Origin: Eledone cirrhosa
Lineage: Eukaryota
Direction of reading: 5' to 3'
Assembly: GCA_964016885.1 (NCBI GenBank)
Contig: OZ024754.1
Location: 1,922,001-1,986,000, forward strand
DNA length: 64,000 nucleotides
Shown piece after piece: positions 2,051-63,240 of the stretch (its first letter is position 1; every line of letters starts with the position of its first letter). The position numbers and the translations under genes are program-made. A model generated the notes under the pieces. The model was not told where the DNA came from. It searched no databases and saw nothing but the letters and a program-made list of their open reading frames with translations.

Positions 2051-2217
2051 GTTTATTCCGGGTCCAATCGGGGGTAACCACAGTAAGTAAGGTACTAAAT
2101 ACATAGCAGTGTATACACATTTAATATAGAAATGGCTTTTACAAGACTAGAACTGTTTTATTCGGGATTACTGATGATTTAACCCGAATGAAACTGCTCT
2201 AGGCCTGTAGAAGCCAT
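2051..2217 (-). mobile_element. PLE pseudo-LTR-like mini-insertion, family A, with 5' inverted duplication
   Basis: Flanked by (TA)n. Reverse complement matches 24756-24870 (shared tail ctgctatgtatt.agtaccttac...cccggaataa). Imperfect inverted repeat 2132-2166/2183-2217. The + arm carries ctgatga (2171-2177) and gaaac (2190-2194). Confidence 0.75.
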
Positions 2218-2232
2218 ATGTATATATATAAA

Positions 2233-2345
2233 TATTCCGAGGATTTGATCAGAGACACACACTGTATTTAAAGTCGAGTGACGCAATTCCGAGTGATCAG
2301 CGGCCTTTAGACTCAACTGATCAATGAAACAATTGTTAATACTGT
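2233..2345 (+). ncRNA. Type-I hammerhead-like motif with CCGAGGA core and long stem II loop
   Basis: tatt-CCGAGGA(2237-2243)-tttgatcag...ctgatcaat-GAAAC(2326-2330)-aatt-GTT-aata, then aataaa and a tail ending in (TA)n at about 2396. Confidence 0.55.
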
Positions 2346-2446
2346 AAATAAAAACCTTTTTGTACAGCAGACCATGTTATTCTTCACTATTTCACTATAT
2401 ATATATATATATATATATATATATATATATATATATATATATATAT

Positions 2447-2582
2447 AAGGAATAAAAGATGAAATCGAAAATGCAACTGGAGTCTTTTTTTTTATAAAAA
2501 TACATTTATTTGGTTCCTTTACCGGTTTCGCTTTTCTTCTTTTCAAAAGTAGAATTGAGATGGGGGGTTTGTGGTTTTTCTC
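2447..2582 (-). mobile_element. PLE pLTR 3'-end remnant with hammerhead 3' half (GAAAC-CG-GUA)
   Basis: Minus strand reads gcgaaaccggta...aataaa...ttgcattttcgatttc, between microsatellites. Similar to 52167-52270. Confidence 0.45.
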
Positions 2583-3493
2583 ACACACACATATATATAT
2601 ATATATATATATATATATATATGAGAGTGGCTGAGATGGTACATGTTGTGTGTAGCTAAACTATCAACCTGAAACCACCATTTTATGGCTAGAGTGTCTA
2701 TGAGAAATCCAAAGTCAACCACATGATAATATCTTTATTTTATATGACGTGTTGGTGATTTGTCAAGTCCGGTATAATGTCTTAAATCGATTCATGTTAT
2801 TTTAAGAAAATACTAAAAAATTATGAGAAATAATTATAAAATGCAATTTATCATCTCCCGGATGTTTGTTAAAAGTATATTTCTTTCTATCTTAGAGGTA
2901 TTTGTTACAGACAAACACGCATAGACGCAGATAATTCCCTCACACACACAAGCAGAGTATCGTATATTTACATACACACATATTGTATATATGTGTATAT
3001 ATATATATATATATGCATATTTTATATATATAAAAGCATACATATATTATAGATATATATGTGTATTTATTCAGATTACTGCAATGGTTCTAATTGCATA
3101 TTATTATGTTCTGCCAATATATTAGTTTAGTTATATTATAAATTGAATTCAATTACTCCGAATTTCTTTAATAGCATATCATGTGGAAACTTATATTTAT
3201 CGGATCAAAATGAGATATCTTGCTGTGTTAGACATTAAAGCAAATAGAACCCCCTCCTTTCATTATTTCTTCTCTTTCGTGGCCTCTCATTCCTCCTCTC
3301 TCTTTATCTGTCTCTATCTTTGCCCTTGTCTCACTTTCGGCTCTAAATTGTGGAGGGAAATAATCTTCAACACAATAGGAGTGGGTGTTAGGTAGAATTC
3401 TTAATATAACAAATATGAATAGTATAGTTGAAATATTGCCAATATATATATATATACATACACATATATTCTAAAGGCTTCCAAAATGACCAA

Positions 3494-3920
3494 TGTATAT
3501 ATACATATATATGTATATATATATGTATATATATATATATATATATATATATATGTATATATGTATATATATATATATATATATGTATATATATATATAT
3601 ATATATATATATATGTATATATGTATATATATATATATATATATGTATATATATATATATATATATATATGTATATATATATATATATATATGTATATAT
3701 ATATATATATATATGTATATATATATATATATATATGTATATATATATATATATATGTATATATATATATATGTATATATATATATATATATATATGTAT
3801 ATATATATATGTATATATATATATATGTGTATATATATATATATATATATATGTATATATATATATATGTGTATATATATATATATGTGTATATATATAT
3901 ATATGTATGTATGTATGTAT
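3494..3920. repeat. (TA)n microsatellite with periodic TG interruptions
   Basis: Direct inspection. Confidence 0.95.
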
Positions 3921-59384: not shown

Positions 59385-59622
59385 TTTATTAAAATAACAG
59401 ATTAAAGTTTAAGCAAAGAATCTCTGCTCCGGTTGCAACGTTTTTTGAAATATTCACTTCAGCGTTCACAGATTGACTTTGTTAGTTTCAGAAGATCCCG
59501 TTAAGGGTGAAAGCAGCGATTCTTTGCTTAAACTTTAATCTGTTATTTTAATAAATATTTGCTCAACGGTTCTTATATATTTATCCTTAACGAGCCCTCT
59601 TTGGATTTTAGTCTTCACATTT
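59385..59622 (+). mobile_element. PLE pLTR-like mini-insertion, family C, with about 43-bp 5' inverted duplication
   Basis: 59385-59427 is the inverted copy of about 59512-59554; AATAAA at 59550; in (TA)n. Confidence 0.8.
59469..59542 (+). ncRNA. Type-I hammerhead-like RNA with variant CAGAAGA core (family C)
   Basis: cagauuga..AGUUU-CAGAAGA-u-ccc(guuaa)ggg-u-GAA-AGCA-gcgauucuu-UGCU-U^-AAACU-uuaaucug. Confidence 0.7.
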
Positions 59623-61214
59623 ATTATTATTACCATATATATATATATATATATATATATATATATATATATATATATATATATATATATATATGTGTGT
59701 GTGTGTGTGTGTGTGTGTGTGTTTATATCCCTGTGTATCTATACAATTCCCAACGATAGAGATTTGTGAAGAAAATTTACCTTCAATTAGTAAAGAATGA
59801 TCAAGCTACAAAAGATAATACTTCGATTCACTGTTCAAAGATATTTACTGCTTTATTGTTGTTACAGTACATCTGACTTTCTCACCTTTATTTCCACGAT
59901 AGTTTTACCTACACAGCTCTAGTCTACCTTAGTTATTTACTTGTTGTTTCAATGTATTCTATCATGGTTCCTGTTGTTGGTGTTGTTGTTGTTGGTGGTG
60001 GTGTTCTTGTTTTATTGTATTTGTTGGGTTTCGTATTGAGTAAATTACATTCCACCTCTCTTGATAAAGCATTAAAGTATTATACTAAACACACACACAC
60101 ACACACACACACACACTTATATATATATATATATATATATATATACACACAAATATATATATACATACATATAAATATATATACATGGATTGTGTATTTA
60201 AATAATACTCTTAAATATCTATATGTGTGTATATGTATATATATATATATATATATATATATATATCATCATCATCTTCGTTTAACGTCCATTTTCCACG
60301 CTGGCAATATATATATATATATATATATATATATATATATATATATAAAAAGTATACGTACACATACGCATATATATATATATATATGAGAGAGAGAGAG
60401 ATAGATATGTATTTGTCTGTTTGTATATGTTTGTATGTGTTTGTAATTTTATACATATATTCATTGAAATAAATAAATAAATTCCTTGTTTTAAATTAGT
60501 GAATTAGACATAATCAAATGACATCACTCTACAGAGCTACTGCGGATTAACTCTATTTAAATGCCTTCCAGTATTATTTGTAGATTAAATAAATCCTGTG
60601 CTAATATCTTTGCTATTCAAAGTAGAAAATATATTGGAATATACCTATTAATTCTCCTTCTTAGAAGACGTTATTACAATTGTTTTCCTTTCTCTTCACA
60701 TCTTTCTACTTTTCACTGTTGTAAATAACCCCCCCCCTCTCTCTGTAACACATGCATGCTTTATATATATATGTATATATATATATATATTTATATATGT
60801 ATACACACACACACACACACACATATATATATGTATATACATATATGTGTATATATATTGATACAATTACATACATATATTTATATATGTATATAATATA
60901 TATTTATATATGTATACACACGCACACACATATATATATATGTATACACATATATATATATGTATATACATATATATATATGTATATACATATATGTGTA
61001 TATATATTGATACAATTACACATATATATATATATATATATATATACAGACTGACTCAAGCAAGCGCATTTTCTGATATACGAACCTAAGTTGTGAGAAT
61101 GTGAATGGCAGTAATTAAGTGAGGTGTTGTGTCAGTAACAACATTCGTTGATAACTTGTAATAACGGAAACCCGATAATAAAACCTAAACAACTACTACC
61201 GAAATATATTCTAA

Positions 61215-61388
61215 TAATTGTTTCTACTTTTGTCACAAGGCCAGCAATTAGCCAATTGTATTACTGGTACTTTATTTTATCGACCCCGTAAGGATGAAAG
61301 ACAAATTTAACCTCGGCGAGATTTGAACTCAGACCACAAAGGGCCGTAACTCTTTGCTGCAAAGCATGGCATCCGACCCTCTACCGAT
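61215..61388 (-). mobile_element. tRNA-derived SINE, main family
   Basis: Reverse-complement match, slightly 5'-truncated. Confidence 0.9.
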
Positions 61389-61484
61389 TTCTGATTTAGG
61401 ATCAAGGACAGACATTTATGAGCAGCTGAATAGAATGTCGATTATAGAACGCGATTAATTGTAGTTCACTAGCACTTTACTATA

Positions 61485-61793
61485 GATGGTGGTGCCCCAG
61501 CATGGCCTCAGCCTAACGGCTGGAATAAGTACTAGACTAATGTGTGACAGCTCACACCTATGCCGGTTTAGCTGCCCCCTCCCCTCCAAGGTATATCTCG
61601 TTGGAAGTGTCTTGGGTGATTTAATGATAGGGACCCCACTCCCTATCATCTCATTTCTACAGCTGAGTAAACTGGAGCAACGTGGAATAAAGTGTCTTGC
61701 TCAAGGAAACAATCATCACTCGGTCTGAGAATTGAACTCACAACCTTTCGATTGCAAGCTCAATGCTCTAACCACTCATCCATGCACCTTCAC
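61485..61793 (-). mobile_element. CORE-like tRNA-derived SINE, near full length
   Basis: Minus: tggttagagc A-box, gagttcaattc B-box, ccttgagcaagacacttta CORE-like block, tail ggccatgctggggcac (also at 26359-26374). Confidence 0.8.
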
Positions 61794-63092
61794 TACTAGA
61801 CTAATATAGTAATACCAAACCCTGATGACTGCAACATACATTTCACCTCAGCTCGATATGAACTCAGAATGTAAACTGCCTGAACTAATACAGTAAAGTA
61901 TATCCTCGACACCTCTAATGGTTCTGCAAATATATAATTTTAATAATTCATATATATACGTTCGGCGACTAATCGGGTAATCGATTCATCTTCTAAAACG
62001 TGGAATGATTAATGGCGATGTCGTATAGGAGTAACTGTCTCTCTTCCTCTCTTTGTCTTGTCTCTCTGTCTCTCTCTCTATCTATCTCTCTATCTCTCTC
62101 TCTCTCTCTCTATATATATATATATTTATTTACATATAATTATATTTATTTACACACACATATATATGCTTATATATGTATGTATGTATATATATATATA
62201 CATACCTGACTGTGTGTTGGCTAATGCATGTATGTGTGTGTGTAGGAAGTGTTGAGTTTACGACAGTGAGCTCCATCTAAGTGAGATAGAACAGTGATTG
62301 TTAGCCGATTCGATCCCACAATATTTACCTCTCTTGAGACATAGATCAAAGGTGATTTTTTATTGTTCTTAATTTCCCTACAGATCTGTGAAGGACAAAA
62401 AGTGTAAGACTGATCATATGTCAACCAGAAATCAGCCCAAATAATCTACATCTTATCAATACAATCAAATATACTTCGAAGTTCAGGTGAACTCCTTTAA
62501 ATATATATATATATATAGATATATATATATATATATATATATATATATATATATACACAGAAGTAATGTATGTATGTATGTGTGTTTATGTGCACATGTG
62601 TGTGCGTATACACATATGTAAGTATGGATATACATATATACAATATTGTGAGAGTGTGTGTGTTTGCATGTATGTATGTATATATATATATATATATATA
62701 TATATATATATATATAAACACACACACTCATGTAGTTGTACATACATAATAATTAATAAGAAGAAATACTTAAATATATAATATATATTATTGTGTTTAC
62801 AGTAGTCAGAACGTTCTAGAACATTATAATAATGTCAATGTTATTGCAAATACAACCGTAAATCTGTGATTCTGTTTCAAATACAATTATAAACAGTGTT
62901 TGGCGTATTTCAACAGACTGTTGAATTATCAATGACACAAATACCCTTAATTTACAAGCAATAACATTTTGTAAGATTTTAAATACAATTAAACATTCAT
63001 CTACATAAATCGTCTATTATAATGTGTATACAAACACACACCCACACACACACTATATATATATATATATATATATATATATATATATATAT

Positions 63093-63240
63093 AAAATAAC
63101 AGATTAAAGTTTAAGCAAAGAATCGCTGTTTTCACCCTTAACGGGATCTTCTGAAACTAAAACTTTTGCTCTACGGTTCTTATATATTTGATATATATTT
63201 ATCCTTATCGAGCTCTCTTTGGATTTTAGTCTTCAAATTT
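63093..63240. mobile_element. Family C mini-insertion (HHR on minus at 63108-63158, tail on plus)
   Basis: Homologous to 21034-21240; in (TA)n. Confidence 0.8.

Follow-up and report, generated by a model that had tools for sequence, protein, structure and literature searches.

Short islands carrying type I hammerhead ribozyme motifs lie embedded in the microsatellites of a 64-kb stretch of Eledone cirrhosa DNA (contig OZ024754.1, positions 1,922,001 to 1,986,000; hereafter the window, in whose own coordinates all features are given). This window has a GC content of 29%, consists of microsatellite for about 28% of its length according to our own mask, and is interrupted by a single 200-base gap. 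An original prediction, made from the sequence alone, had read the islands as hammerhead-bearing mini-elements of Penelope type seeded in microsatellites, and the present analysis supports it in part, namely as to hammerhead-bearing 3' ends of Penelope-like elements (PLEs). Its counts of at least 15 islands and at least seven families were not overstated: 21 candidates in about 12 groups can be listed, many of them decayed or reduced to half a motif. Self-BLAST defines families A (two islands), C (five) and D (three), with head-to-head inverted arms that confirm the predicted 5' inverted duplications; B, E, F, H, I, J, K and two tail-only islands are singletons, G1 and G2 resemble each other weakly (self-comparison E 0.014), and F, G2 and J are doubtful.

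Chance does not account for these islands. Four exact-core folds were obtained with a strict type I descriptor, whereas 40 dinucleotide shuffles, made island by island, gave 0.025 on average; three of the four are credible (24737+, 25015- and 28063-) and the fourth (17044+) is weak. With one mismatch allowed, eight cores were found versus 0.75 in shuffles. The original proposal was to be given up if shuffled DNA yielded such motifs as often; a scored descriptor instead places eight cores at a score of at least 20, versus 0.45 (maximum 2) in 60 shuffles, these eight including both near-identical arms of island E and two family D copies, and 13 cores at a score of 14, versus 2.1 (60 shuffles). 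Because of the shuffle counts at these two scores, the high scorers are considered real and the low scorers uncertain. Motifs at 17044, 19723, 23390, 45373, 62459 and 63909 were weighed and left out of the count. No Rfam match reached the gathering score, either in the window or in 10 of the 77 outside loci described below, and by E-value only microsatellite look-alikes occur among the 150 listed of 682 matches.

Both core halves (CUGANGA and GAAA), a UH cleavage site and three stems are present in islands A, B, I and E. Family A provides a complete fold (24729..24783, + strand) with U.U at positions 10.1/11.1 and a predicted cut after 24775, also recovered at E 6.9e-05 by a model (R1) built on Hydra-like loci only. 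It is accompanied by an inverted arm (24660..24716, -) ending 5 nt before the position of the tail hairpin, and by that hairpin itself (24803..24823, +; hairpin model E 0.031), whose tail continues to (TA)n at 24874; a second family A island is decayed, with its arms head to head (2051..2225; 80% identity over 118 nt in self-BLAST). Island I is complete (24953..25023, -; descriptors and R1), with a 36-nt stem II region (24973-25008) and a palindromic stem III. Island B, also complete (27977..28069, -), has a 62-nt stem II region (27995-28056), and its tail hairpin motif is present as a 3' half only. Island H (2230..2345, +) combines a U4C core with an 82-nt stem II region (2244-2325). In island E (30716..30866, -; scored descriptor), a 116-nt stem II region (30736-30851) carries 10-nt tandem repeats at its apex, and a tail of about 130 nt, including a hairpin with a long loop (30574..30655, -), leads to (TA)n at 30527; its inverted arm (30868..31070, +; 99.8% in self-BLAST) bears a second whole hammerhead and ends 4 nt before the hairpin position.

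Five complete folds had been claimed, and those at 24731, 24955 and 27977 hold, with exact cores and three stems, while the other two hold in part: the fold at 30869 has an exact core but a C.C mismatch near the base of its long stem II, and that at 59469 folds well but its core reads CAGAAGA (U4A). The predicted layout is likewise partly retained: the islands have a hammerhead near the 3' end and are inserted into (TA)n, B adjoining (AG)n instead, and an AATAAA can be seen in B, D, H and I but is missing from A and C. U.U at 10.1/11.1 or U3-A8 features occur among A, D, H and G, as in Hydra-like loci. Any cleavage activity or expression of the islands is putative.

The CAGAAGA core is common to all three family D copies (59489-59495, 21100 and 63153), whose stems are intact, and apparently to the majority of family D reads. 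The forward copy (59427..59634, +; scored descriptor and reads), with its U4A-core hammerhead at 59489, comprises an end X at 59557/59558, a tail hairpin at 59561-59597 and a tail end at 59634, and is preceded by an inverted arm stopping at X (59388..59426, -; self-BLAST). In the two other islands, an inverted arm with a hammerhead (-) is joined to a forward tail (+) at 21039..21260 (self-BLAST, descriptor, hairpin search), and a short inverted arm (-) to a forward tail (+) at 63097..63260 (self-BLAST, descriptor, hairpin model).

The CUGANGA half is missing from all five family C islands. That at 20813..21015 carries the hammerhead 3' half in both arms and a tail hairpin at 20854-20879 (-; hairpin model E 0.00084), and that at 33556..33744 has a similar layout, with a hairpin at 33600-33625 (-; E 0.069). 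A short C-like copy (17993..18064, -; self-BLAST) stops at X. The two remaining islands are a tail (32760..32870, -) with a hairpin at 32804-32828 (E 0.0018), and a tail (-) joined to an inverted arm (+) at 33235..33393 (self-BLAST); both are followed by a repeat with a box B like that of transfer RNA (tRNA) genes. This repeat of about 310 nt consists of two inverted arms (6250-6567, +; 32920-33231, -; 32500-32760, -), with a box A in one copy, and ARAGORN found no tRNA in it. Two copies, arranged head to tail, each stand behind a family C tail, and the pair includes an inverted arm (33330-33393); the combination is either an insertion that was later duplicated or a non-autonomous Hydra-dependent unit.

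The window also contains an open reading frame (ORF) fragment at 29545..30466 (-), which the original prediction had seen as an example of the mobilising elements. It is broken and 5'-truncated, translating as three pieces with frameshifts and stops, and its 3' end is lost in the gap (29345-29544). A search of 1.84 billion proteins returned 3,190 matches (best E 2.9e-32), the pieces aligning with long homologs over the end of the reverse transcriptase (RT), the thumb and the linker. In the third piece, this linker reads CNCTYPDNC, i.e. CxCX5C, and the consensus of 14 long homologs has RW, DKT and CxCX5CP. As described for the Hydra clade (PMC8557442), its marks are a CxCX5C linker, RWK and DKT motifs, plus a GIY-YIG at the C-terminus that has no CCHH; it inserts into (TA)n and carries hammerheads (section 11), and in the supplement there is a family from Octopus bimaculoides, along with numerous hammerheads that have U.U at 10.1/11.1. 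The Neptune linker is CX2-5CxxC. Because of the linker and of the motifs in the homologs, the fragment is assigned from its translation to the Hydra clade and not to Neptune, with which the islands had first been connected; Neptune and Naiad are both ruled out by the linker. The RW/DKT and GIY-YIG parts fall outside the fragment, as a result of truncation and of the gap. Nothing exceeded the Pfam cut-off for an ORF piece or eight homologs, and a word-index protein search for longer relatives found none among 467 candidates. As the fragment is broken, separated from island E by (TA)n and cut off at its 3' end by the gap, it can be linked to no family here.

Outside relatives offer a broader basis for comparison. 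Alignment of the homologs led to 77 Hydra-like loci, drawn from the best 80 of 350 confirmed stretches, and both loci and leaders come from metagenomes. A type I hammerhead is present in 44 of the 62 loci with at least 120 nt downstream, with U.U at 10.1/11.1 in 21/44, U3-A8 in 3/44 and a stem II region of 10-29 nt. These hammerheads covary: in 20 loci with a 9-nt stem III, picked for clean alignment from 39 distinct ones, 95.7% of positions are paired and 78 double changes occur versus 22.9 (0/500 shuffles). Model R1, made from the locus hammerheads only, gives seven window matches including 24729-24783 and 12238-12297 and, weakly, island I and two D copies; it is blind to long stem II regions, and B, E and H are not among its seven.

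The claim that the families have no shared sequence outside the core does not hold, for a tail hairpin of the form RCTC-stem-YY-GAGY is common to four of them. A tail motif derived from the window occurs nine times 35-65 nt before a microsatellite, versus 0.98 in shuffles, and in the loci it forms the 3' side of a hairpin GCTC-stem-YY-GAGC. This hairpin follows 28 of the 44 locus hammerheads, seven others entering (TA)n near its site, five being too short and four being without it. In the window, it is found in A, C, D, E and at 57196..57224 (-; hairpin model E 1.8), where it lies about 50 nt before (TA)n without a convincing hammerhead. The outer pair shows a double change, ACTC/GAGT in A, C, E and the 57224 hairpin versus GCTC/GAGC in D. 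Inner stem pairs 1 to 3, which were not part of the search selection, are paired in 23/25, 18/23 and 18/18 distinct sequences, with T-A/C-G/G-C exchanges; Watson-Crick pairs make up 23/25 versus 12.6 shuffled at pair 1 and 15/18 versus 5.3 at pair 3, and pairing appears only in the register with a 2-nt bulge. As MAFFT misaligned the hairpins, pairs were counted by an anchored script, and a model-fitted alignment, biased by construction, agrees with these counts. A hairpin model built on the loci only returned 11 window matches, the top four being the tails at 20848, 32798, 24793 and 33594, followed by the uncounted site 63909, then D and 57190. The predicted bulged hairpin thus covaries and is common to families A, C, D and E.

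In the Hydra-like leaders this hairpin is frequently doubled. It is present in 45/54 leaders and at least twice in 27/54, compared with 6/1,040 control windows; the spacing is 55-74 nt in 26/27, and the last hairpin ends 15-27 nt before the ATG in 32/40, so that the hammerhead and hairpin 1 are followed, after about 60 nt, by hairpin 2 and, about 23 nt beyond it, by the ATG. In one group of Hydra-like loci (L008, L011, L015, L032 and L045), a smaller ACTC or GCTC ... GAGTA hairpin lies after the hammerhead and before hairpin 1.

Where do insertions end relative to these hairpins? When 3' copies were compared with the leaders of their own locus (31 rows, of which eight ending at a contig end and one running into the ORF were excluded), 15 of 22 true breakpoints fell 0-6 nt before a hairpin, six at hairpin 1 (end X) and nine at hairpin 2 (end Y), as read by hand. 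If a chance of 0.08-0.15 is assumed, the binomial tail stays under 3e-8, but the 15 fall into 11 groups at 70% identity. Window inverted arms end 2, 3, 4, 5, 5, 10 and 12 nt before the hairpin (5/7 within 0-6 nt); their stopping point is X, which forward copies pass by about 75 nt.

Family D could be followed in sequencing reads, its reference (59385-59642) being compared with one restriction site-associated DNA (RAD-seq) run and three contig sets. Matches were found in 12,835 of 12,467,656 reads, 8,282 of them at less than 95% identity, so that family D is abundant and old; the very large population originally predicted is borne out for this family. The corresponding figure is roughly 3-4 copies per Mb if sampling is even, RAD sampling being uneven. 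Family D contigs number 14,887 in one run, and 3 and 13 in runs labelled as two other species, while the exact family D pattern occurs in 0 metagenome contigs. As many as 2,795 reads depart from the reference at 59557/59558 into (TA)n, marking a fixed internal end X located 2-3 nt before the hairpin. Upstream of 59427/59430, 1,415 reads extend with one common sequence (about 70% of those at the left edge, where depth is about 2,030), which is seen in both other species too and reaches at least 203 nt in one contig. Its 30-letter loose end translates HEPKYRLPVF, resembling the Hydra CxH end (Figure S7, PMC8557442 supplement). The CxH-end pattern, picked after the data were seen, fits 21/51 homolog ends and 340/200,000 random 30-mers (chance 0.0017), and the resemblance is suggestive only of a Hydra ORF end.

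At core position 59490, no other letter occurs among the 40 listed of 60 read variants, and the stem variants listed are mostly CpG-type transitions. The stem covariation called for by the original prediction is seen between families, but no compensatory pair was found among the family D stem variants listed, as expected for dead copies. No pile-up of DNA read starts at the predicted cut site appears among the loose-end rows listed. Changes at U4 lower hammerhead activity, and the ribozyme may have been weak or dead while family D spread; the family also suggests that an element with a non-consensus hammerhead core became widespread. The core-variant section of one paper names no U4A, and describes U10.1-U11.1 and U3-A8 as tolerated (PMC3088659).

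Taken together, these observations lead us to read the islands, with a probability of about 0.7, as 5'-truncated, dead copies of the 3' ends of a large number of Hydra-clade families; the two types of end that these show are likely set by a conserved pair of RNA hairpins. A longer-than-unit RNA would be bound at the hairpin by the RT-endonuclease of the element, which would nick (TA)n and start complementary DNA (cDNA) synthesis just 5' of the hairpin, leaving the latter uncopied. One target strand would prime at Y (hairpin 2) and the other at X (hairpin 1), and both cDNAs would abort early and be joined head to head, yielding a tailless inverted arm and a tailed copy, with the tail corresponding to the stretch between X and Y. 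Uncut RNA would be the likely template, because the hammerhead is copied whole. In this respect, the Poseidon protein has been reported to cut both strands of AT-rich DNA and to use, in vitro, two internal RT starts that bound the tail on an uncleaved RNA (PMC11167929), and PLE copies are described as having a truncated 5' end, arms in inverted orientation and a tail on one side (PMC8557442). The hairpin pair likely explains both the Penelope 'tail' and the paired ends. A more specific proposal is more tentative and falls somewhat short of even odds: a so far undescribed pair of RNA hairpins (GCUC-stem-UU-GAGC, separated by about 60 nt) would dock the two RT-endonuclease subunits and fix both RT starts, accounting for tail and head-to-head insertions, so that an RNA carrying this pair could be copied into TA repeats whether or not its hammerhead works.

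Several points weigh against this interpretation. There is no single sequence in which an island continues into a Hydra ORF, and the family D-ORF link consists of 30 letters and a post hoc pattern, the C of CxH lying outside them. BLASTN of the islands against the 77 loci gave no match, and window stem II regions of 36-116 nt exceed those of all 44 locus hammerheads. Hairpin 2 is not in the window, and no whole tail hairpin was found there in B, F, G, H, I, J and K, whose clade is for this reason left unassigned. The outer GCTC/GAGC pairs are invariant by search design, and the loci are partly related. Seven of 22 breakpoints lie away from a hairpin (11, 19, 21, 27, 65, 86 and -25 nt), as do two of seven window arms (10-12 nt). 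The starts of two of the three family D copies differ by only about 2 nt, and a short template could be the cause. Lastly, the reported Poseidon start sites are not homologous to the cut DNA and lie 30-40 nt apart (PMC11167929).

The common start of two family D copies is also what would be expected if some families were dedicated short non-autonomous elements with a hammerhead and hairpins, using a Hydra enzyme as MRC1 does with Chlamys. The unusually long stem II of B, E, H and I, the family C tail standing twice before the B-box repeat in a head-to-tail pair with an inverted arm, the single Hydra ORF fragment for 21 islands, and published non-autonomous PLE partners (PMC8557442; bioRxiv 2026.07.22.740005) point the same way. 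However, strong 5' truncation by itself yields many stubs per ORF, and about 70% of the family D left-edge reads continue upstream, for at least 203 nt, with one ORF-end-like sequence. Because these reads continue into an apparent Hydra ORF end, truncated copies fit better; the mini-elements of the original prediction are not demonstrated, the roughly 1,415 extending reads favouring 5'-truncated copies, and we consider such dedicated elements unlikely. Of similarly low probability is that the islands are Hydra ends, but that the hairpins, rather than docking the RT, mark sites immediately 5' of which the RNA is cut or terminates, or act as DNA signals for the endonuclease. Identical ends are predicted in that case, inner-stem G.U pairs are not clearly more frequent than mismatches, so that the signal may be read in RNA or in DNA, and the Drosophila Penelope endonuclease needed tail sequence for DNA recognition (as reported in PMC11167929). 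Against this, extending the 3' end of Poseidon RNA left the product unchanged, so that its starts are internal (PMC11167929).

Much less probable is that the islands are animal non-LTR (long terminal repeat) retrozymes spreading via small circular RNAs. Such retrozymes are likewise short and non-coding, with type I hammerheads and kinship to PLE pseudo-LTRs (PMC7229834; bioRxiv 2026.07.22.740005), and a 2026 preprint reports their PLE origin (bioRxiv 2026.07.22.740005). They are nevertheless tandem repeats with a hammerhead per unit (PMC7229834; bioRxiv 2026.07.22.740005), whereas the islands are single or head-to-head stubs: the window has no same-strand tandem units each with a hammerhead, and its arms, which are in inverted orientation, terminate at ends of PLE type. 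That the folds arose by chance in AT-rich, low-complexity DNA is a negligible explanation, refuted for A, B, C, D, E and I by the shuffle counts at a score of at least 20, by multi-copy families and by models built on outside DNA that locate the same sites, although shuffles also yield motifs with scores under about 18, a class to which F, G2 and J may belong.

To what extent is the reading as truncated Hydra-clade ends new? As published, the Hydra clade, including Hydra-1_Obim of Octopus bimaculoides, resembles the window's ORF fragment in its CxCX5C linker and the islands in its (TA)n targets, 5'-truncated inverted copies and one-sided tail, and in a hammerhead that lies about 100 nt before the 3' end and frequently combines U.U at 10.1/11.1 with a palindromic stem III (Craig et al. 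2021, PMC8557442). By eye, the published Hydra-1_Obim hammerhead is not among the window cores, and the islands differ from published Hydra elements by a stem II of up to 116 nt, U4A fixed in family D, and a tail of about 75 nt. Metazoan PLE minimal hammerheads (Cervera and De la Pena 2014, PMC4209133) are also reported as thousands of dispersed motifs, with many families per genome and mostly in truncated PLEs, some in opposite-strand pairs, with U3-A8 variants and palindromic helix III; in contrast to these minimal motifs, helix III is more complete in most of the window motifs, which are also without G10.1-C11.1, only F looking minimal. The layout of hammerhead, tail, (TA)n and inverted 5' arm is thus already published for this class, and the islands belong to a known kind. 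In an annotation of O. vulgaris, 31 Penelope-like families are given as recently active, and the repeat library of that work could already contain the island families (PMC13282606).

The new part is the twin hairpin, for which no description was found in the literature searched, a search that covered few subscription papers and had Repbase and Dfam outside it. The words 'hairpin' and 'stem-loop' have 0 occurrences in the text and supplement of PMC8557442, and yet hairpins are visible by eye in consensuses published there, both in Hydra-1_Ajap and one each in Hydra-2_Amil and Hydra-2_Ajap. The Poseidon element PAc (Frangieh et al. 2024, PMC11167929) has similarly two starts bounding an optional tail, AT-rich targets and an uncleaved RNA template, but belongs to another clade, and its starts are described within one AC-rich stem-loop inside the ORF, whereas a Hydra end is located immediately ahead of one or the other of two similar hairpins within the non-coding leader.

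While the stubs themselves are expected debris, their density shows that short Penelope sequences are hidden in microsatellites and escape Rfam. How do PLEs choose their start sites, and how do one-sided tails and inverted ends arise? These are open questions on which the hairpin pair bears, as it would define a cis signal for copying RNA into (TA)n. A covarying signal of 20-40 nt, with predicted starts 0-6 nt before it, is testable in the existing in vitro assay, and the hairpin pair lets Hydra ends be found and oriented without an ORF.

The remaining islands are less well preserved. Island K (12238..12297, -) is a decayed Hydra-type hammerhead with G8A (strict descriptor; R1 E 0.0055), and island F (28200..28242, -) a decayed minimal hammerhead-like motif below the descriptors, read by eye. 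Island G1 (52224..52266, -) is a hammerhead-like fold with a U3-A8 core and a borderline score of 19.8 (scored descriptor), to which the decayed G2 (2450..2575, -), with a core of U3-A8 type, is weakly similar; island J (50530..50575, +), read from the sequence, is a decayed hammerhead-like motif with a 6-bp stem II. A decayed tail-hairpin-like motif lies at 822..856 (+; 15-nt match to A), and a GCTC/GAGC hairpin at 63909-63942 (+; hairpin model E 0.15) follows (TC)n, with no hammerhead nearby.

Among the other repeats of the window is an abundant one of 170-190 nt, similar to a short interspersed element, whose copies are 82-93% identical (4383, 14009, 14190, 14382, 23793, 44198, 48916, 52647, 54452, 61212 and weaker ones), three of them in tandem at 14009-14448. 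A GC-richer segment at 38283-39950 (+) looks by eye like a broken RT of a long interspersed element, and one 140-aa piece of it gave nothing above the Pfam cut-off. Finally, 58565-58873 is a tandem array of units of about 70 nt, which are 86-93% alike.

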